64,000 bases of DNA. Origin: Frankiaceae bacterium (GTDB lineage: Bacteria > Actinomycetota > Actinomycetes > JAFAQI01). Location of the stretch: the NCBI GenBank assembly GCA_019239875.1, contig JAFAZI010000133.1, forward strand, positions 130 through 64,129. Reading direction: 5' to 3'. Below are positions 16,535 through 54,903 of this stretch, piece by piece (positions within the stretch are counted from its first letter, which is position 1; every line of letters begins with the position of its first letter). A model generated the notes under the pieces. It saw only the letters and a program-made list of their open reading frames with translations, did not search any database and was not told the DNA's origin. Position numbers and translations under genes: made by a program.

Positions 16535-19192
16535 ATGCCCCCCAAGCACGTCCGGCCGGTTCTCATCGGCATCACCACCTTCGCGCTCGGCTGCGGCGGA
16601 ACCGTCGCTGCCACGGCGGGGCACGCCGCTGCTTCACAGCGAATGGGCGCCGGACCGGTCACCGCCACGATGACGCTTGCCGGCGACGTGGTCCCCGGCC
16701 TGCTGACGCACCGCGACCTCGGCCGCACCTCGCCGACTCGGCAGCTGATCGTCGACCTCAACCTCACGCGACCCGACGTCGCGGGCGAGAAGGCGCTGTG
16801 GAACGCGATGTACACGAAGGGCGATCCGTCGTACCACCACTTCCTCACGCCCGCGCAGTTCGACGCCCGGTTCGGCGTCGCCCCGCAGACCTACGCCGCC
16901 GTGCGCACCTGGGCGACCCGCGCCGGCCTCGACGTGGTGAACGCGCCGGGCAGCCGCGACATCCTCCAGCTGTCGGGGACCGCTGCACAGGTTGAGAAGA
17001 CCTTCTCCGTCACGTTGCGCGACTTCCGGATCGGCGGCCGGCGGGTGTTCGCCAACACCAACGCGCCTACCGTGCCGGCGGGTCATTCCGTGCAGGGGCT
17101 GGTCGGGCTGACCAACCTGTATCGGTCGACCACGGCGCGCACGCGCGGCCCGAAGCCTGCGCAGGACGGGTGCGGCGCGCCGGCCGGTTGCACGAACCTC
17201 ACCACGCCGCGTGACCTGTGGTCGGCGTACAAGATGCCAGGCGGCGCCAAGGCGAACCCGATCGGCAATCTGAAGACGGACTTCGGCCAGGGTCAGCAGA
17301 TGGCGGTCTTCGGCGAGGGGCAGAGCTCTGGCGTGATCGCGAACCTGCGGACCTTCGAGCAGCTCAACAAGCTGCCGCGGGTGCCGGTCACGGTGGTGCG
17401 GACCGACGGAAAGAAGAAGAAGTACGACGACAACGCCGGCGAGACGGAGTGGGATCTCGACACCCAGTCCTCGACGGCGATGTCGCCGGATGTTCGCCGT
17501 GAGGTCCTGTACTTCGGGACCGCTCTTACGGACGCGAGCGTGCTCGGCGTGTTCAGCGCGTGGGCCAACGACCCGCACGGCCCGCTGCAGGCGAACGCGT
17601 CGTACGGCGAGTGCGAGGAGAACCCGGCCGGAGACACGGAGGGCACGGTTACCCCGCCGTTCTCGGCCGGCGCGATGTTCACGGTCAAGTCCGAGGACGT
17701 GTTGCGCAAGGCCACGATGGAGGGCCGCACGCTGTTCTCGTCGACCGGTGACACCGGCGGCACGTGCCCGCTGCTCCCCGTCAGCGTGAACGGCGTCGGC
17801 TACGAGATCCCGGGCGTGGAGTACCCCGCGGTGAGCCCGTACGTCGTCGGGGTCGGCGGCACCATCCTGTACACCGACGGCAGCGCGGCGGCGAAGCGGG
17901 TCACCGAGTACGGCTGGACCTACGGCGGCGGTGGCAGCAGCGTCGACTTCCCGAAGCCGGCGTACCAGAACGGGATCTCGGCGATCAGCGGCGTCTGTGC
18001 CTTCGCGCCCGGTGGCGGGACCGGCAACTCCGGGAAGCCGTGTCGAGGTCTGCCCGACATCGCCGCGCAGTCCGGTGACGTGGCGAGCAACGGGTTTGCC
18101 ATCGTCGCGGGTGGTGAGACGGCGTACCCGGGTGGTGGCACGAGCCTGTCCTCACCGCTGTCGATGGGCATGTGGACCAGGATCCAGGCGGCGGCGCCCG
18201 GCACCAAGAAGTGCGGAAAGCGAGCGTCGTTCAAGGGTCTCGGGTTCGCGAACCCGGCGCTGTACGCGGCGTACAAGAGCAAGCACGGTGGCCGCGACTT
18301 CTTCGACGTCGGCGGACCGAAGCACTCCATCCCGTCCGACGCCGTTCCGTACCCGTCGACGCCTGGCTGGGACTACCAGTCCGGCATGGGTGTGATGCAG
18401 GTGTCGCGGCTGGCGCGGGATCTCACTGGACGCAAGTCGTTGCGGCCTGCGTTCGACGTCCTGCCCAAGCAGCCGAAGGATCGGACATCGGCGAAGCGCG
18501 CGAACCCTTGTGCCCCGCTGTTCACGGACCCGGCGGGCGATGATGCGTACATCGGTGACCCGGATGGCACGGGCGGCAACCCGCAGCTCGACGTGCTTGC
18601 GGGCAACATCACCTACCTGCCGGCGAAGAAGGCGCTGCGAACGGTGATGGTGATCAAGAACCTGTCCACCGACGCCGCGAACGCGGAGGGCGGCGGCAAC
18701 GAGTACTACTTCCTCTGGAACTACAAGGGCAAGCAGTACTTCACCGACGCCGAGGTCGACTCGGTCGGTGCAGTGACCTATCACGACGGGTACGTCGACG
18801 GGACCACCTTCACCACGGCGAACGACGACACCGGTCAGTTCGTGGCGGGCAAGAACGGCCGCGTCGTCGTCGACGTGCCGCTCGCGAACATCGGCTCGCC
18901 CGCGAAGGGTGCGACGCTGACCGCGCCGGCCGCGCAGACCCGGGTGCTCGTCGGCACCGCCGGCACGGGCGGGCTGATCGAGCAGGCGGACGGATCGTCA
19001 CCGGGATCCGGGTACGTCGTCGGCCAGCGCTGCAAGCACAAGACGGGGATCGCGCCACCGCCGTACAAGGCATCGGGTGCCTCCAAGAGCGCAAAAATCC
19101 GCTACCACCGAGCCGGCAAGCCCGGTCGCATCGCCAAGCACGGTCACAACGTCGTGAAGCGCAAGCGATGCAAGGCAAAGCTCAGCGCCTGA
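16535..19192 (+). CDS. secreted S53 (sedolisin / pro-kumamolisin-like) peptidase with C-terminal extension
   Basis: Signal peptide, pro-kumamolisin activation domain, and S53 catalytic region with the SGTS-type motif (GGTSLSSP). A roughly 260-aa Lys-rich C-terminal extension follows. Confidence 0.8.
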   Translation: MPPKHVRPVLIGITTFALGCGGTVAATAGHAAASQRMGAGPVTATMTLAGDVVPGLLTHRDLGRTSPTRQLIVDLNLTRPDVAGEKALWNAMYTKGDPSYHHFLTPAQFDARFGVAPQTYAAVRTWATRAGLDVVNAPGSRDILQLSGTAAQVEKTFSVTLRDFRIGGRRVFANTNAPTVPAGHSVQGLVGLTNLYRSTTARTRGPKPAQDGCGAPAGCTNLTTPRDLWSAYKMPGGAKANPIGNLKTDFGQGQQMAVFGEGQSSGVIANLRTFEQLNKLPRVPVTVVRTDGKKKKYDDNAGETEWDLDTQSSTAMSPDVRREVLYFGTALTDASVLGVFSAWANDPHGPLQANASYGECEENPAGDTEGTVTPPFSAGAMFTVKSEDVLRKATMEGRTLFSSTGDTGGTCPLLPVSVNGVGYEIPGVEYPAVSPYVVGVGGTILYTDGSAAAKRVTEYGWTYGGGGSSVDFPKPAYQNGISAISGVCAFAPGGGTGNSGKPCRGLPDIAAQSGDVASNGFAIVAGGETAYPGGGTSLSSPLSMGMWTRIQAAAPGTKKCGKRASFKGLGFANPALYAAYKSKHGGRDFFDVGGPKHSIPSDAVPYPSTPGWDYQSGMGVMQVSRLARDLTGRKSLRPAFDVLPKQPKDRTSAKRANPCAPLFTDPAGDDAYIGDPDGTGGNPQLDVLAGNITYLPAKKALRTVMVIKNLSTDAANAEGGGNEYYFLWNYKGKQYFTDAEVDSVGAVTYHDGYVDGTTFTTANDDTGQFVAGKNGRVVVDVPLANIGSPAKGATLTAPAAQTRVLVGTAGTGGLIEQADGSSPGSGYVVGQRCKHKTGIAPPPYKASGASKSAKIRYHRAGKPGRIAKHGHNVVKRKRCKAKLSA

Positions 19193-19224: not shown

Positions 19225-19422
19225 GTGCGGCTGACCGACTTCTGGGGGCGGATGGAGGAGCACTTCGGTGCTGCCTACGCGCACTCCGTCGCGCGTGACC
19301 AGGTGATCGGGCGGCTCGGCGAACGGTCGGTGGTCGACGCGCTCACCGCGGGCGAGGACCCGAAACAGGTCTGGCTCGCCGTCTGCGAGCACTTCGAGAT
19401 CCCGGTCGCCCAGCGCCACTAG
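19225..19422 (+). CDS. DUF3046 family protein (conserved recA-upstream gene of actinomycetes)
   Basis: 65-aa protein MRLTDFWGRMEEHFGAAYAHS…; equivalent of the Rv2738c-type gene that normally sits directly upstream of recA. Confidence 0.8.
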   Translation: MRLTDFWGRMEEHFGAAYAHSVARDQVIGRLGERSVVDALTAGEDPKQVWLAVCEHFEIPVAQRH

Positions 19423-19878: not shown

Positions 19879-20433
19879 CGCAGAGGTGCCGCTCGCGCGC
19901 GTGGGCTTTGTTACGGCGTGTGCTTGAACTAGTGATCTCAGGCCCGGACTATGGACCGGTGCGGCCGGTTCGATTGCCTTTGTTGATAGTGCTGGCCGTC
20001 ATCTGCGTCGTGATCACCGAGGCATGCGCCCCAAGCAACAACGAAAGCGACTGTCATATCCCGCAGCCCGCAGTCGGCGACTCGGGGAGCGCGACACTTC
20101 AGGCTCACCCGGCTCGCCACGTTTTGACTGCCAGATTTGGGGGACGCCACTGGCTCGCGCGCTCGCAGTTGAACGAGGTCCAGCCACTGGCCCACGCGAC
20201 AGTGATCCCGTCTCGGCCTCGCGGTCGGCGGCCTAAGACCAGTCGGCGCGGCATGCCTCCCCGACTTCGCATTGAGACCAGTCCGCCCATCGTCCTCAAT
20301 CTCGTGGAGATCGGGTGCGGATGATCGAGAAGTGCCTGATCTTGAGCGTGACATCCGGCGTTGTGAACTTTCCTAATCATGGCCTTTGCGGTACATCCGG
20401 GAGGTAGCCTTCGCGAAGGTGCGGGAGGCGCGG

Positions 20434-22422
20434 ATGTGGCGACGTGCGTTAACCGCGGCCGTATTGATCTTGACGGTGGTGCCTCTCTCGGCTGCGTCGG
20501 CGGGCGCCGATCACCGGTCGCGTTTCGAGGTCTCAGTTCGTCTGACGTCCCAGACGATCCTGATTGGGGACCATGCTGACCTAACCGGCAAGGTACGAGG
20601 CGGGATTCCTGGGACGAAGGTTCGCCTGCAGCGACGCGTCGCCGGCGCGTGGGTCGACAGGCGCCGTGCGCAGTTAGCGCGGCATTCCACCTTCGAGATC
20701 AGCCTCCCAACTGGCAAGGCTAGGTCGGTCCAGTATCGCGTCGTGAAACCCGCAGGGCGGGCGCGCCATCACATGGTGGAACGGTCTGGCCACAGTGCCC
20801 CAGTGAGACTGACGGTCTATCGCCGGCTTGATGTTAGTGATCCCGCGGACGGAAGTGCGTATAGCTACTACGACCACCGACTTAGCGCGCCGCACGTCAT
20901 GCACGGCAGCTGGCGGCTCGGCGGGGGCGCCCTCCCACACGGCCTCACGCTGTCGCAGGACGGTCAGATCACAGGAACTCCGACCGCGCACCAAACTGCG
21001 ACTTTCAGGTTGGAAGCGACTGGGACCGACGGAGCCGACCGGGTGAGTGAGCCGCTCCAAATGACGATTCGCGCCTACGTCAACGATGTAGGCAAGTACT
21101 GGTCTGCCGTGGCGGCACCTGACAGGTCCACCCGAAACGGCCAGTTTCAAGACCAGTTATTTGACGTCGACTGTCCCGCCACCGGCCAGTGCACTGCGGT
21201 CGGCACATACGCCGACTACTCACGAGATGGCCTGGGCGGCGTGCTCGTGGAGACTCTCGCTCTAGGCCAGTGGGTCGACCAAGAGGTGCCCCTGCCACCG
21301 GGCGTGACCGGACGGGCTGGGCTAAGTCAGATCGACTGCTCGGACTCGCTGAACTGTGTGGCTATCGGCAGCTTCGTCAACGACGGCAACGACTCCGACT
21401 ACTTCGCGCACGGTCTGCTTGGCGTCGAGACCGCTGGCGTCTGGACATTGAGCGTCGCGCCTACCCCGAGCGCCGCAGCTGCGGCAGGCCAGCAGTACAT
21501 GGACCTGACCTCCCTCGCTTGCAGCGGTCCAGCCGCGTGTGTTGCCTTCGGCGTCACGAGCGCCGGCGGAGCGCAGCACGTAAACGAAGCAACTGGTGTC
21601 GCCGAGACGCTGTCCGCGACGACGTGGGCCGCGACCACCGTCGATGCAGCGCACACATATGTCGGGCTGGCACATGCCACCTGCAGCGCCTCCGAATGTG
21701 TCCTCATCGGCCGTGGCTCGCCCCAGGATCGACTCATTGAGGGAAACGGGTCCGTCTGGTCGTCAACCGCGATCCCGTACGCCGCGCCAGCCTCGGCGGA
21801 AGCAAACGCCGTATCCGCACTGCGATGCTTCACCGCCGACTCGTGTACGTACATCGGCGCAGAAGCCGATATCGGGGCGGGCGGATGGCAGGGCATCGTC
21901 GGGTCGGTCGACAAGACCGTACCCAACTCCACATTCGGTCCAGCGGTACCTGACGTCGCGGGAAACTGGTTCTACAACGACTTATCCTGCACCGGCGCCA
22001 CCTGGTGCGCAGCTGGGGGTGTCTACGCGACGGCGACGGCCGCCCAACAGCCGGACGTGGCGACGTACGCCGCCGGCACCTGGACTGCGATTGGTCTCGT
22101 CGTCCCTCCCAGTCCCTATGACACGGAGGAGTCGCCGCCTGAGGGCTCTATCGAACACATCGACTGCCCTACGGTCGATCGATGCGCGGCCGCTGGCGCG
22201 GCAAACGCCGGAGCTCTGCTCATCACACGCGACGCTGATAGCTGGCATACGTTCTTGGCCCCGGCGCCCAGCGACGCGAAGCCTAGGGACAACGATCTTC
22301 AGTCGCTGAGTTGCGCGTCGACTACCTTCTGTGTGTCGGTGGGCGAGTACTACACGGCCCAATTTCCGCAATTACCCCACGGCTTAATCGAGACATACGA
22401 CGGACCACCGGCAAGCAGCTAA
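20434..22422 (+). CDS. secreted protein with Ig-like N-terminal domains and eight Cys-x4-5-Cys tandem repeats
   Basis: Start at MWRRALTAAVLILTV… (signal peptide) with GGGAGG 6 nt upstream. Contains a putative Ig-type segment (LPHGLTLSQDGQITGTPTA…). It then carries eight roughly 50-55-aa repeats, each beginning C-x4-5-C-x-[AV]-x-G and containing a conserved Trp. Confidence 0.7.
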   Translation: MWRRALTAAVLILTVVPLSAASAGADHRSRFEVSVRLTSQTILIGDHADLTGKVRGGIPGTKVRLQRRVAGAWVDRRRAQLARHSTFEISLPTGKARSVQYRVVKPAGRARHHMVERSGHSAPVRLTVYRRLDVSDPADGSAYSYYDHRLSAPHVMHGSWRLGGGALPHGLTLSQDGQITGTPTAHQTATFRLEATGTDGADRVSEPLQMTIRAYVNDVGKYWSAVAAPDRSTRNGQFQDQLFDVDCPATGQCTAVGTYADYSRDGLGGVLVETLALGQWVDQEVPLPPGVTGRAGLSQIDCSDSLNCVAIGSFVNDGNDSDYFAHGLLGVETAGVWTLSVAPTPSAAAAAGQQYMDLTSLACSGPAACVAFGVTSAGGAQHVNEATGVAETLSATTWAATTVDAAHTYVGLAHATCSASECVLIGRGSPQDRLIEGNGSVWSSTAIPYAAPASAEANAVSALRCFTADSCTYIGAEADIGAGGWQGIVGSVDKTVPNSTFGPAVPDVAGNWFYNDLSCTGATWCAAGGVYATATAAQQPDVATYAAGTWTAIGLVVPPSPYDTEESPPEGSIEHIDCPTVDRCAAAGAANAGALLITRDADSWHTFLAPAPSDAKPRDNDLQSLSCASTTFCVSVGEYYTAQFPQLPHGLIETYDGPPASS

Positions 22423-22706: not shown

Positions 22707-23003
22707 ATGTCCGCTGCCGAGCAGGACCCCACCATCGGTGCCTCGCGCTCCCTCATCGACGGTGACTGGGAGTGGCCTGTCCACGGTCTACGTCACCCAC
22801 CAGCGGACCGAACATCCGGCTGGTACGTCTGGACCGGCGATCTCTCCCACGCCGATGACTTTTTCCAGCCGTGGCACACCAGCCATCTGGTGGAGCGGGT
22901 CCCGCAGTTGGCGTCCTTGCTTGATCTCCCTCCGGGGTCGAGATTCTTGATCGCGCCTGACCATCTGGACACCTGGAAAGACCCGTCTCTCCTCGACGTG
23001 TAG
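22707..23003 (+). CDS. hypothetical Trp-rich small protein
   Basis: 98-aa ORF (…WEWPVHGLRHPP…WYVWTGD…FQPWH…). An alternative antisense ORF at 22434..22784 overlaps it. Confidence 0.35.
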   Translation: MSAAEQDPTIGASRSLIDGDWEWPVHGLRHPPADRTSGWYVWTGDLSHADDFFQPWHTSHLVERVPQLASLLDLPPGSRFLIAPDHLDTWKDPSLLDV

Positions 23004-23139
23004 GCGCCTAGAAGTGCCGATCGCGGCGTCTGGCCCTCCGGCCTGCAGGATCGGGCCGGGCGGTCGTTCGCGTAGGCATAACCCGCGTATGGCGCTCTTT
23101 CGTCGGCGGGCCGAATCGCCGACGCCGCCACGGGCTCCG

Positions 23140-23850
23140 ATGCGGAGTCTGGAGGACCTCGTCCACGTCAAGCCTCCTGCCTGGCCGTGGCTCGCTGAAC
23201 TCATCGAGAGGTCTCGGGTCCCAGTTCGTGTTATCCCTGCCGATCCGGAGGCAGCGAGCACGTGCCTGTATCGGTTGCAGGTGAGCGTTGCCTCGGCTCT
23301 GGGTGCAGTCGCGTTCAACACGGGTGGGCTCATCGTGGATCACGGATGGCTGCGGATCCTCGGCTGTGGCGGTGAAGGGCTGACTGACCTGGCGATGGCA
23401 AATGCGCTCGGCGATCGAGCGAAAGCGGCAGGCCCCCCGTCACATCTCGTTGTCGCCTATGACGTCGTCGGCGGGCGATTCGCCGTGAACGGCGGTGGGT
23501 TGCCAGGCCCGTCCGGACAGGTTCACTACTGGGGACCCGACACCTTGAGCTGGCACTCTCTCGGTTTCGGACACTCTGCGTTCATCGAATGGACTCTCGC
23601 CGGCAGCACGGTCGATTTCTATTCTTCGCTGCGCTGGCCGGGTTGGGAAGAAGACGCTGAAAGCGTCGCCGGTGATCAAGGCATCCTGCTCTACCCGCCG
23701 CCGTTTTCTGCGCAGGGCCAAGACACGACCAACGTCGCCCGGAAGGTTGTGTCCTGGGACGAACTCGTCGGCATGTATGACGACTTCAGTCGCCAAATGG
23801 GTGAGCTGCCGCCCGGCACCGAGTTCCAGATCGTTGTGACTGACGACTGA
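23140..23850 (+). CDS. DUF2625 domain protein
   Basis: Start chosen at MRSLEDLVHVKPPAWPWL…; resembles the DUF2625 family (recalled from memory, not searched). Confidence 0.55.
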   Translation: MRSLEDLVHVKPPAWPWLAELIERSRVPVRVIPADPEAASTCLYRLQVSVASALGAVAFNTGGLIVDHGWLRILGCGGEGLTDLAMANALGDRAKAAGPPSHLVVAYDVVGGRFAVNGGGLPGPSGQVHYWGPDTLSWHSLGFGHSAFIEWTLAGSTVDFYSSLRWPGWEEDAESVAGDQGILLYPPPFSAQGQDTTNVARKVVSWDELVGMYDDFSRQMGELPPGTEFQIVVTDD

Positions 23851-24656: not shown

Positions 24657-25098
24657 AGGGCGATGCATAGATGCCGTTCCCGAGCGGGTGGACCGGCGTT
24701 ATCGTGCGGTCGTGTCACTCGATGAGGATGGACGTAACGCCCTCCATCACGCTGCGGTACGCGGTGAGGTCGACGTGCTGGCCAGCCTTCCAAAGCGCGG
24801 AGACCATGACCTCGACCTCGCCGATCGTCAGGGCTTCACGCCGCTTCACTTTGCTGCGCAGCAGGGCGACCTGGAAGCCGTGCGACTGCTGCTGGTCGCC
24901 GGTGCATCTGTCGACCCGCAGGACAGCCGCGGGAACACGCCGTTGTGGCGCGCCGTCTTCGGCAACAACGCTGTCGCGGAGATAGTTCAGCTGCTCCTGG
25001 CAGCGGGCGCCGACCCTGACATCACGAACAACAGTGGACGGTCACCACGAGATATGGCCGCGACCTTTAACAAGGCCGAGATAGTCAGTCAACTCTGA
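24574..25098 (+). CDS. ankyrin-repeat protein
   Basis: At least three ANK repeats (NALHHAAVRGEVDVL…, GFTPLHFAAQQGDLEAVRLLLVAGA…, GNTPLWRAV…). The start is uncertain (possibly GTG 24712), because the track ORF overlaps the preceding gene. Confidence 0.65.
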   Translation: MHPPETPFCQCARRLRPILSVRHAGRTRGRCIDAVPERVDRRYRAVVSLDEDGRNALHHAAVRGEVDVLASLPKRGDHDLDLADRQGFTPLHFAAQQGDLEAVRLLLVAGASVDPQDSRGNTPLWRAVFGNNAVAEIVQLLLAAGADPDITNNSGRSPRDMAATFNKAEIVSQL

Positions 25099-26221: not shown

Positions 26222-28610
<2,389 letters not shown>

Positions 28611-28621
<11 letters not shown>

Positions 28622-52502: not shown

Positions 52503-52837
52503 CCCCCGCCGACCGGCTCGCGGCGGATCGCGAGACGACGCTCGAGCAGATCGACGACCTGAGCGCCGAGCTCGCCGACATCGTCGCCTCCACCGACCTC
52601 GTCGCGACCGACGACGAGCACGATCCGGAGGGCGCCACGATCGCGTTCGAGCGCGCCCGGATCGATGCGTTGCTCGACGCCGCGAGAGATCACCTCGCCG
52701 CGATCGGGCACGCCGAGGCGCGGCTGGCGGCCGGGGAGTACGGCGTGTGTGAGCGCTGCGGCCAGCCGATCAGTGAGGCGCGGCTGGAAGCGCGCCCGAC
52801 GGCAGCCACGTGCATCGACTGCGCCAACGCCGGCTAG
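52499..52837 (+). CDS. DksA/TraR-family C4 zinc-finger protein (short form)
   Basis: C-terminal CERCGQPISEARLEARPTAATCIDC. GTG start overlapping the SDR stop (GTGA). Confidence 0.6.
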   Translation: MTPADRLAADRETTLEQIDDLSAELADIVASTDLVATDDEHDPEGATIAFERARIDALLDAARDHLAAIGHAEARLAAGEYGVCERCGQPISEARLEARPTAATCIDCANAG

Positions 52838-53775
52838 GACGGGGCGCTTGCGCGTGGCTTGGGCTGGTCGAGATCGGCGCGGCCGAGCAGCAGCAGAAGC
52901 GTGGCAAGCAGGCTCACCACGGCCACGATCGTGAGGTTGGTGCTGACGCGGTAGGCATCGGAGAGGATGCCCGGTGGCGTCGGCGCGGCCGCGTCGTTGT
53001 TCGCGAGGAACCGCAGCACCCGCTCGGCGTTCAGCGCCCCGGCGGCCAAGCAGTACAGCCACACGACACTCAGCACCGCGAATGCTGGCACGTGGCCGAG
53101 CCGATGGCCGGTGCCGACCGGCCGATACCTGGCGATCACCGCGGCCATGATCGCGACCGCGGCGAAGCTCAGAAAGGCGGCACCGATCGCGTCGCTCGGG
53201 CGGTGCCAGCCTGCGGTCTGCACCGCCGCGGCCGTGAACCAGGCGAAGGACCCGGCGACCACCGCCGAGATGCCGCGCCACGACGGTGGCGACACGACGA
53301 CGAGCGCCAAGGCGCACGAGATGGCCGTCGCCGTGTGCCCGCTCGGATAGGTGTTGTAGGCCTGGACCAGGGCGTTGTCGACGAGTGCCGGTCGGCCGAG
53401 CACCACGCGCCGGAGCAGGTCGGTGAACAGCACCGAGAACGCGGCCGCAACCGCGACGCTGATCCCGAGGCGGGGCCGCCGTCGTACCCATCCGAAGCCG
53501 ACGATGAGGACCAGTACCAGGAGGAAGGAGTCGGCAGTGATCCGTTGCAGCTGGTCGGTGTCGGAGATCCGGGTCGCCGGGAGCTGCTGGCGGGCGCCGA
53601 GCAGCGCGGCGTTGTCGAAGCGCTGCCCGATGGCCGTGTAGACGAACAGGACGTAGATCGCCGCACACGCGAGGGCCGCAACCGCGGCTGCGACCAGCAA
53701 GCGGGTCGCGAGCCGCCGGTCGGGCACAGCGTCGACCGGTGCCGAGGTCGGTACCGCCGTCGTCACCACGCTCAC
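52834..53775 (-). CDS. PAP2-superfamily phosphatase (membrane)
   Basis: PSGH (YPSGHTATA) and SR/HRPSD motifs in a polytopic protein. GTG start with GGAGG 5 nt upstream; the track ORF is over-extended. Confidence 0.65.
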   Translation of the reverse strand: MSVVTTAVPTSAPVDAVPDRRLATRLLVAAAVAALACAAIYVLFVYTAIGQRFDNAALLGARQQLPATRISDTDQLQRITADSFLLVLVLIVGFGWVRRRPRLGISVAVAAAFSVLFTDLLRRVVLGRPALVDNALVQAYNTYPSGHTATAISCALALVVVSPPSWRGISAVVAGSFAWFTAAAVQTAGWHRPSDAIGAAFLSFAAVAIMAAVIARYRPVGTGHRLGHVPAFAVLSVVWLYCLAAGALNAERVLRFLANNDAAAPTPPGILSDAYRVSTNLTIVAVVSLLATLLLLLGRADLDQPKPRASAPS

Positions 53776-53886
53776 GCCTCCATGAAAGCCCGAAAACCTG
53801 AACGATTCGCGATTTCGCTGCGGTTGCGCCTGACCCGTGGCAGGTTGACACCGTCGAAGCGTGTCGCTGACCTGGGGGTTTGCCCG

Positions 53887-54903
53887 ATGTACGACGCTGG
53901 ACGCCGCGCCCGAACCTGGGGAGTTCTCCTGTTGGTGATCGGCGGCGCAGCGGCCGCGGTCGGACCGGTGCAGCGGGTCTCGGCAACTCCGGCTGGCCAT
54001 GGCGGCTGGCACTTCAGCAAGCCGTACCGGATTCCGCACATGCGTGACGCAGTGAACGGGATCGCGTGCCCGACGGCCAAGCTGTGCCTCGCGCCATCGG
54101 CGAACAAGATGTTCTGGACCACGAAGGCGACCGGCGGCAAAGGCAAGTGGAAGAACGCAGCGCTCGAGGACTCGCAGGGCGGGAGCGTGATCCTCACCGA
54201 CGTCACCTGCGCGTCGAAGAACCTGTGCGTTGCCGTCGACAACCTCGGCAACGGGTTCGTCGCAACGAAGCCGGCGGGCGGCAAGAACGCCTGGCATCCC
54301 GTCTACATCTCGAGCATCGAGATCGAGTCGGTCGGCTGCTCCGCCAGTGGCGACTGCGCGGCCCTGGACTACTACGGCAACGTCTTCTCGACAACAACGC
54401 CATCGACCGGATGGACCATCGGGAACAAGAAGGTCGGTACCGGTGCGGGCTCAGATGGCGGCGTCGGGTGCGCGCACGGCCTGTGCGCCGTCACGTCGGG
54501 TACCAACAAGATCGCGACCACCACGAAGCCCGGCAGCGCGACCTGGAAGGTCACGAAGGTCAAGGGGTCGAGTCAGTGGTCTGACGTCGCCTGCCCCTCG
54601 GCGCATCGCTGCGTCGCCGTCGGCAGCCCTTCGTTCCACGGCAAGGTGGCCGTCTCGAAGGGCGCGGGTGGCTGGAAGCACGCGAGCTTGGGCCAGGGTG
54701 GTGGCGGCGGCGTCGACTGTGCGAGCGCATCCTCCTGCTTCATCATCTCCGACTACTTCTCGTCGCACCCCAAGGCGAGCAAGCACGCGTGGAAGCCCGT
54801 CGCCATGCCCTCGCTCGGCAGCCAGACCGGCGTGTCTTGCCCCACGCCGAGGCGCTGCTTCATCGGTACGTCGACCAACCAGTTCACGGTCGGGAACCGC
54901 TAG
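53887..54903 (+). CDS. secreted protein of seven Cys-x4-5-Cys tandem repeats (paralogue of 20434..22422)
   Basis: Start MYDAGRRARTWGVLLLVIGGAAAAVG (signal). Seven roughly 43-aa modules (C-x4-5-C-[VALF]-[AV]…W…), e.g. CASKNLCVAVDNLGNGFVATKPAGGKNAWHPV. Confidence 0.65.
   Translation: MYDAGRRARTWGVLLLVIGGAAAAVGPVQRVSATPAGHGGWHFSKPYRIPHMRDAVNGIACPTAKLCLAPSANKMFWTTKATGGKGKWKNAALEDSQGGSVILTDVTCASKNLCVAVDNLGNGFVATKPAGGKNAWHPVYISSIEIESVGCSASGDCAALDYYGNVFSTTTPSTGWTIGNKKVGTGAGSDGGVGCAHGLCAVTSGTNKIATTTKPGSATWKVTKVKGSSQWSDVACPSAHRCVAVGSPSFHGKVAVSKGAGGWKHASLGQGGGGGVDCASASSCFIISDYFSSHPKASKHAWKPVAMPSLGSQTGVSCPTPRRCFIGTSTNQFTVGNR

Follow-up and report, generated by a model that had tools for sequence, protein, structure and literature searches.

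What does an exported protein do when all of its cysteines fall into a regular series of closely spaced pairs, and does its repeat belong to a known family? The question is raised by p1, a gene found in a window of 64,000 nucleotides (the whole stretch analyzed, positions 130 to 64,129 of the forward strand of contig JAFAZI010000133.1; coordinates below count from its first letter) from a Frankiaceae bacterium, the host chromosome being of the high-GC, actinobacterial type. An earlier note, made from the letters of this DNA without database searches, had described the product as a secreted or cell-surface protein with Ig-like segments and eight cysteine- and tryptophan-containing modules, which might form a β-propeller or a β-solenoid. 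We report here that the modules belong to a repeat class found in tens of thousands of protein clusters and that they are predicted to fold into a closed eight-bladed propeller. We consider it likely that p1 is an exported, disulfide-stabilized propeller that acts as an extracellular binding scaffold.

Results

Eight cysteine-pair units in p1

The 16 cysteines of p1 are all found within eight C-x4/5-C pairs (residues 247/253, 302/308, 363/369, 417/422, 465/471, 519/525, 578/584, and 627/633), with none outside the pairs, and the corresponding units are 48 to 61 amino acids (aa) long. The strings that the earlier note had quoted for its eight modules were reproduced exactly, and two tests show that the series exceeds chance. 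When the residues of aa 222-662 were shuffled 20,000 times, at most 5 C-x4-5-C pairs resulted, compared to the 8 observed. Moreover, a repeat-unit hidden Markov model (HMM) built solely from other proteins recovered the eight p1 units with a whole-protein E-value of 2.6e-46 and per-unit E-values from 1e-16 to 2e-3, and the A3 family profile recovered p1 at E 7e-110. We define the Cys-hairpin propeller family by tandem units that carry a C-x4/5-C-x-A-x-G hairpin, and p1 is a member of this family. The conserved Trp, at a position that the earlier note had described as aromatic or Trp in each module, was located in six units (W280, W337, W398, W442, W550, and W604) and in an N-terminal strand (W223) and is missing from unit 5 (aa 459-512), a degenerate unit that keeps the Cys hairpin and has no canonical Trp. 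The segment that contains W223 (aa 220-234) gives a weak, partial match to the unit HMM (profile positions 45-59, E 0.1, score -0.4). The features of p1 are listed below with the E-values of the unit HMM.

20423..20428, plus strand: Shine-Dalgarno-like GGGAGG, 5 nt upstream of the ATG, read from the sequence
20434..22422, plus strand: p1 coding sequence, with signal peptide (probable), N-terminal region, He_PIG domain, and eight-bladed Cys-pair propeller (predicted)
20434..20502, plus strand: probable signal peptide, aa 1-23 (MWRRALTAAVLILTVVPLSAASA, cut before GA), from sequence pattern only
20509..20838, plus strand: N-terminal region of ~110 aa (aa 26-135), called Ig-like in the earlier note, no Pfam match
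20908..21054, plus strand: He_PIG (putative Ig), aa 159-207, Pfam PF05345
21091..21135, plus strand: N-terminal Trp strand, aa 220-234, W223, weak unit-HMM match, predicted strand at 223-227
21154..21318, plus strand: predicted blade 1, aa 241-295, C247/C253, W280, E 1.2e-16
21319..21501, plus strand: predicted blade 2, aa 296-356, C302/C308, W337, E 1.7e-10
21502..21663, plus strand: predicted blade 3, aa 357-410, C363/C369, W398, E 3.7e-9
21664..21807, plus strand: predicted blade 4, aa 411-458, C417/C422 (the sole C-x4-C pair), W442, E 9e-5
21808..21969, plus strand: predicted blade 5, aa 459-512, C465/C471, degenerate second half, HMM covering just the Cys hairpin (aa 455-480), E 2e-3
21970..22146, plus strand: predicted blade 6, aa 513-571, C519/C525, W550, E 1.3e-8
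22147..22293, plus strand: predicted blade 7, aa 572-620, C578/C584, W604, E 9e-7
22294..22419, plus strand: predicted blade 8, aa 621-662, C627/C633, three strands, E 4e-10

The open reading frame (ORF) listed for p1 in the window extends over 20386..22422 (plus strand), and the coding sequence that we retain within it encodes a product of 662 aa followed by a stop codon. Translation likely starts at the ATG at 20434, which is preceded by the Shine-Dalgarno-like motif. A public gene call, P0001 (662 aa), is 100% identical to p1, has the same start residue, and occurs on two ENA metagenome contigs. That p1 might be a spurious ORF was rejected on the basis of its homologs, the Shine-Dalgarno motif, and these identical gene calls on two contigs.

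A predicted closed propeller with paired cysteines

The structures of p1 and of p2, a second family member in the window (described below), were predicted with AlphaFold2 (AF2) on alignments of their own homologs. The model supports a closed eight-bladed β-propeller spanning aa ~220-657 of p1, and the predicted structure conforms to the generic definition of this fold, a closed ring of 4-10 four-stranded antiparallel blades. We regard this architecture, one of the two that the earlier note had proposed, with an AlphaFold model as a check, as highly probable. Blade 5 (21808..21969) has lost the E-x-W-x-G-x-x-W half of the unit and shows a predicted local distance difference test (pLDDT) score of ~51-54 over aa 481-510.

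Each blade would consist of a four-stranded antiparallel sheet, in which the Cys pair flanks the tight turn between strands 1 and 2, taken as the innermost strands by analogy with Asp-box propellers, and in which strand 4 begins with the conserved Trp. The assignment of the strands as a whole is inferred from the same analogy. The last unit has three strands and lacks a W strand of its own, and AF2 places a strand at residues 223-227; together with the weak match of the W223 segment, this is what a "velcro" closure would look like. The ring thus appears to be closed by the N-terminal W223 strand, which would complete the last blade as its fourth strand.

One intrablade disulfide per blade is most likely, given the position of the cysteines in the hairpin, their near-invariance, their even number, and the probable extracellular setting of the protein. 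Cysteines arranged as C-x5-C across a three-residue turn, or as C-x4-C across a two-residue turn, would face each other on adjacent strands, as the partners of a cross-strand disulfide do; such a bond would most likely clamp each hairpin after the chain has left the cytoplasm. The cysteines are invariant or at least 90% conserved across the family alignments. Of 3029 ungapped fam1-type units, 3028 keep both, as do all 1774 fam2-type units, counts that are influenced by the preference of the unit HMM for units keeping Cys. A covariation test opposing both-lost to one-lost pairs had no variation to draw on, since the pair is practically invariant.

Export and the N-terminal part of p1

The N terminus of p1 displays two Arg, a hydrophobic core, and A-S-A ahead of the putative cut, a pattern from which we consider the protein to be probably Sec exported via a cleavable signal peptide. 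The W-R-R-A-L stretch of the N-region weakly resembles a twin-arginine (Tat) motif. Inspection of the sequence revealed no lipobox Cys, no LPXTG motif, and no C-terminal hydrophobic segment, and since no anchor is visible, "secreted" is a safer wording than "cell-surface".

Of the two Ig-like segments attributed to p1, the second is retained. It corresponds to a He_PIG domain (PF05345) at aa 159-207, with an E-value of 6.2e-8 and a score of 33.4 bits against a gathering cutoff of 24; the match spans profile positions 40-90 of 96, and the domain is modeled with a pLDDT of ~62-67. The first segment, aa 26-135, has no Pfam match even at E≤10 and is modeled at a pLDDT of <50, because the alignment does not cover this region.

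Comparison with known families and folds

The earlier note could not place the repeat in a known family, and our searches agree with this. In Pfam-A (2025 copy), He_PIG is the sole match in p1 and there is none in p2, NCBIfam 20.0 gives no match for p1, p2, or eight relatives, and phmmer and profile searches of all Protein Data Bank (PDB) chain sequences returned nothing for the p1 family. The p2-family profile has one marginal match in the PDB, Ycf48, at E 0.016. Within the literature library searched, we found no description of a Cys-hairpin repeat family, nor anything on DUF6087 or DUF2510.

The best local (3Di) structure matches are to the BNR/Asp-box propellers, which are also extracellular or lumenal. 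For p1, Foldseek (local structure) ranks first sortilin Vps10, Ycf48, GH74, and sialidases, with template modeling (TM) scores of 0.2-0.65 that are low because the blade numbers differ. In sequence, the p2 subfamily comes nearest to them, with an S-T-x-P-x-G-G-x-x-W turn between strands 3 and 4 whose consensus, S-T-d-P-t-G-G-a-x-a-W, is Asp-box-like and three residues longer. The equivalent turn is E-x-W-x-G-x-x-W in the relatives of p1 and degenerate in p1 itself, not S-x-D-x-G-x-T-W, and none of the eight p1 units shows a Pfam BNR-type match or the S-x-D-x-G-x-T-W motif. Conversely, Asp-box proteins do not have the C-x5-C hairpin. The Cys-hairpin repeat class may be distantly derived from the Asp-box propellers. 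p1 does not qualify as a GH74 protein, as it has a single, eight-bladed propeller and no sequence match to the GH74 chains of the PDB.

Eight-bladed propellers of the WD40 type (TBL1XR1 5naf, Notchless, Fbw7/Cdc4, Rsa4, and the designed Ika8) and BamB were also compared with p1. The sequence identity of p1 to this eight-bladed set is 6-11%, and that to WD40 structures is 6-13%; the Pfam WD40 (PF00400) model has no match at E≤1 in p1 or p2 and none in six relatives, and the PQQ models have none at E≤1 in p1. p1 is devoid of GH/WD dipeptides, and its blades, at 48-61 aa, are longer than the ~40-aa repeats of WD40 proteins. The latter are mostly intracellular and without blade disulfides, unlike p1, for which disulfides are predicted.

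A disulfide in every blade has eukaryotic precedents. The ectodomain of the plant receptor CRINKLY4 (ACR4/PpCR4) is an extracellular propeller with one conserved, stabilizing disulfide in every blade (bioRxiv 10.1101/2020.08.10.245050). It differs from p1 in having seven blades, an RCC1/BLIP-II-like fold, and an N-terminal strand that fills the pore, and no sequence relationship between the two was detected; we regard their likeness as an analogy of design and not as homology. CyRPA of Plasmodium falciparum is a secreted sialidase-fold propeller with an Asp-box and five sequential intrablade disulfides, the blade built from both termini being the one without a disulfide (PMC5349852). It has six blades and cysteines that are not in a C-x5-C hairpin, whereas p1 carries a pair in all eight blades, including the velcro blade.

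The only Pfam models that approach the repeat itself are DUF2510 and DUF6087. In relatives of p1, they give summed short matches of 16-28 aa on the E-x-W-N/D-G-x-x-W segment of each blade, with 0 stretches passing singly, and p1 has no match at E≤1. These models do not cover the Cys hairpin, so the resemblance is confined to the level of the motif.

Size, subfamilies, and distribution of the family

The p1-type propeller profile, scored against 1.84 billion representatives of 50%-identity clusters, detects 45,543 proteins at E≤1e-3, of which 14,979 also pass E≤1e-30. What had been presented in the earlier note as a small family in this genome is in reality a family of tens of thousands of clusters. 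Most of the best 150 relatives are ~740 aa long, with a signal-peptide-like N terminus and 14 units (2x7), and the others contain 7 units, or 21 and more with a maximum of 38. Likewise, 7 and 13-14 units dominate among 85 family ORFs sampled from genomes, and eight units are also present in P0005 and in several p2-type relatives. Because 7 or 14 units are usual in the family, p1 may represent a seven-bladed ancestor to which a further blade, now decaying, was added (blade 5).

The matches listed come almost exclusively from uncultured soil and bog metagenome-assembled genomes (MAGs). The taxa among them are Acidimicrobiales/Acidimicrobiaceae, Solirubrobacterales, Streptosporangiaceae (Trebonia), unclassified Actinomycetota, Dormibacteraeota (Dormibacterota), and Chloroflexi. 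These taxa come from a scan of one genome per GTDB species with a degenerate DNA pattern that covers a pair of adjacent units; the list is a sample and not a census, and the pattern is biased toward G-V-S-C units in GC-rich codons. Where the sources give a name, it is "hypothetical protein".

The window contains one further member of the family, and no other ORF in it has the clustered motif.

53887..54903, plus strand: p2 (338 aa), signal or anchor sequence and seven-bladed Cys-pair propeller (predicted), of the short-period, Asp-box-like subfamily

The 14 Cys of p2 fall into seven pairs that recur every ~43 aa, and a Trp (W41) lies ahead of the first blade in the same arrangement as W223 in p1. 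The consensus of the p1-type unit is.L.gVSC.sa..CvAVG.y....G....LaE.WnG..Wt....P.P.G and that of the p2-type unit is.l.gVSCPSasLCVAVd..G.v.tSTdPtGGa.aW....l. Just the Cys hairpin aligns between the two unit profiles (18 columns, hhalign P 94%), and p1 and p2 are each detected by the unit HMM of the other at E 1e-12 to 1e-14. From these sequence comparisons, we read p1 and p2 as one repeat class with two subfamilies. The seven modules that had been reported for p2 are confirmed as seven pairs, and its description as a paralog of p1 is refined to that of a member of a different subfamily, not a close paralog. Divergent from p2 and upstream of it lies an ORF for a membrane protein (52834..54297, minus strand) with a PAP2-like "PSGHTA" motif in its translation; this mechanically defined ORF overlaps the start of p2, and its true start is likely downstream of the overlap.

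A second tandem repeat, free of Cys and present in several copies of ~40 aa, GYWLVASDGGVFNYGDAxFYGS, occupies the C-terminal halves of the relatives P0003, P0005, and P0008. It is carried by many p1-type relatives, matches no Pfam family above threshold, and is probably another propeller for which the libraries searched hold no curated model.

Discussion

A proposed binding scaffold outside the cell

The conserved columns of the repeat are structural: the Cys pair, A-x-G, and the Trp, to which the p1 subfamily adds a Glu in strand 3. The loops between strands 2 and 3 and those between blades vary in length and sequence. This combination of a conserved core with variable loops leads us to read the propeller as a rigid scaffold that displays loops for a ligand. 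Stabilized by oxidation, such a scaffold would present its variable loops to an extracellular glycan or protein and would not be a known enzyme. The domains associated with the repeat in relatives (Dockerin_1, fn3, PKD, Big_3_5, He_PIG, Laminin_G_3, cadherin-like, and Peptidase_S8) are extracellular modules, and most of the top relatives start with signal-peptide-like N termini. While we favor the exported scaffold, we are evenly divided on whether its role in p1 is the binding of a ligand.

Several points weigh against the scaffold. There is no hint of a ligand, and the 120 flanking ORFs of relatives examined with Pfam share no partner. p1 has no close ortholog from which to map surface conservation, and a tblastn search of p1 against the sampled loci yielded no relative above ~30% identity. 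The R-R of the N-region leaves the Tat route possible, and Tat fits poorly with oxidative folding outside the cell. The DSSP strings of the models by themselves leave the register of the hairpin unfixed. Finally, several Foldseek matches to p1 are enzymes, GH74 xyloglucanases, sialidases, a PL24 lyase, and CylK being among the best local ones.

These last matches are the starting point of the main rival, namely, that the p1 propeller is itself an enzyme, either an Asp-box-type glycoside hydrolase or lyase (GH74, sialidase, or PL24) or a Vgb/CylK-like lyase or alkylase; its active site would then be located at the top face or within the central funnel. The commonest architecture of the family, ~740 aa and 14 units, amounts to two seven-bladed propellers, and two tandem seven-bladed propellers, between which lies a cleft with catalytic Asp residues, are the layout of GH74 enzymes; dockerins in some relatives also agree with such an activity. 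However, the TM-scores to these enzymes are low (0.2-0.4), and p1 has a single propeller, hence no cleft of the GH74 type. No catalytic family of Pfam or NCBIfam matches the repeat region of p1 or of its relatives, and the family profiles find no PDB sequence apart from the marginal Ycf48 match. The conserved columns are just the structural Cys, Gly, Ala, and Trp, with no conserved Asp, Glu, or His except the strand-3 Glu of the p1 subfamily. We therefore consider an enzymatic p1 unlikely and prefer the scaffold.

The almost absolute conservation of the Cys pairs could alternatively reflect metal-binding (Zn/Fe) or redox-active sites, such as a thiol-disulfide relay around the central channel, which the pairs would ring if they occupy, as the assignment of strands by analogy suggests, equivalent positions beside the innermost hairpin turn. 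Yet p1 and its relatives look extracellular, a setting in which paired cysteines are normally oxidized, the C-x4/5-C spacing around a β-turn of two or three residues has the geometry of a cross-strand disulfide, there are no conserved His or Asp coligands, and in CRINKLY4 and CyRPA, extracellular propellers of known structure with a single Cys pair per blade, the pairs are disulfides. Metal or redox chemistry at the pairs is thus very improbable.

We give equally little credence to a polymorphic-toxin or contact-dependent competition locus, in which the propeller would be the receptor-binding or delivery part and the small genes downstream would confer immunity. The idea arises from the Imm33-like, DUF2625, and ankyrin-repeat genes directly downstream of p1 and from the position of the block, wedged between DUF3046 and recA, two genes that are usually adjacent in actinobacteria. 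Against it, p1 ends in the propeller and has no C-terminal toxin domain, no immunity or toxin family recurs in the flanks of relatives (120 ORFs), and no secretion-system genes were seen in the neighborhood listing. A non-propeller repeat such as the β-solenoid, in favor of which there is nothing beyond the regular period, is ruled out, at the level of prediction, by the AlphaFold2 models and deserves hardly any credit.

Significance of the family

What is new in p1 is the sequence family; the β-propeller fold and the disulfide in each blade, with CRINKLY4 and CyRPA as eukaryotic precedents, are known. The β-propeller is among the commonest folds, and the point of note is that tens of thousands of clusters have no Pfam-A or NCBIfam 20.0 model and no solved relative detectable by sequence. 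They occur mainly in soil lineages that are uncultured and that have little annotation for their secreted proteins, and with a curated model, thousands of "hypothetical proteins" could be given a name. We tentatively put forward a broader proposal, with the balance tilted slightly against it: that the C-x5-C hairpin repeat constitutes a very large propeller family (at least 45,000 50%-identity clusters, typically with seven or 2x7 blades), characteristic of uncultured soil and peat Actinomycetota (Acidimicrobiia, Thermoleophilia, and Streptosporangiales), Dormibacterota, and Chloroflexota, and that it is a disulfide-hardened Asp-box offshoot with an extracellular function of its own, for example, a new class of lectins or polysaccharide-active proteins abundant in soil secretomes. 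A ligand or an activity, if found, would bear on soil carbon turnover or on cell-surface biology in these phyla. The strict design of one disulfide per blade, as predicted, would also be a natural example of how a propeller is hardened for extracellular life, parallel to CRINKLY4 and CyRPA and relevant to propeller design. The p1 family is thus valuable for annotation and for the study of soil-bacterial secretomes, without being a categorically new kind of system.

Gene neighborhood

p1 sits in a chromosomal core region, in the order Lhr helicase, S53 peptidase, DUF3046, p1, Imm33-like gene, DUF2625, ankyrin gene, intein-containing recA, recX, and RNase Y. In relatives, the 120 flanking ORFs are spread over 118 Pfam families, none of which occurs more than 4 times, and there is therefore no conserved operon. 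Immediately upstream of p1 lies the gene of a secreted S53 peptidase (sedolisin, Pro-kuma_activ) of 885 aa (16535..19192, plus strand), which has a long extra C-terminal region with a Lys/Arg-rich tail at its end. DUF3046 is at 19225..19422, and the block of small, immunity-type genes between it and recA comprises, by their Pfam labels, the Imm33-like gene (22707..23003, plus strand), DUF2625 (23014..23850, plus strand), and the ankyrin repeats (~24688..25098, plus strand). This block could be an orphan islet of immunity genes; no toxin gene was seen. Farther downstream, recA (26222..28621, plus strand) contains an intein that includes a LAGLIDADG homing-endonuclease domain (RecA_N, Intein_splicing, LAGLIDADG_3, and RecA_C) and is followed by recX and RNase Y.

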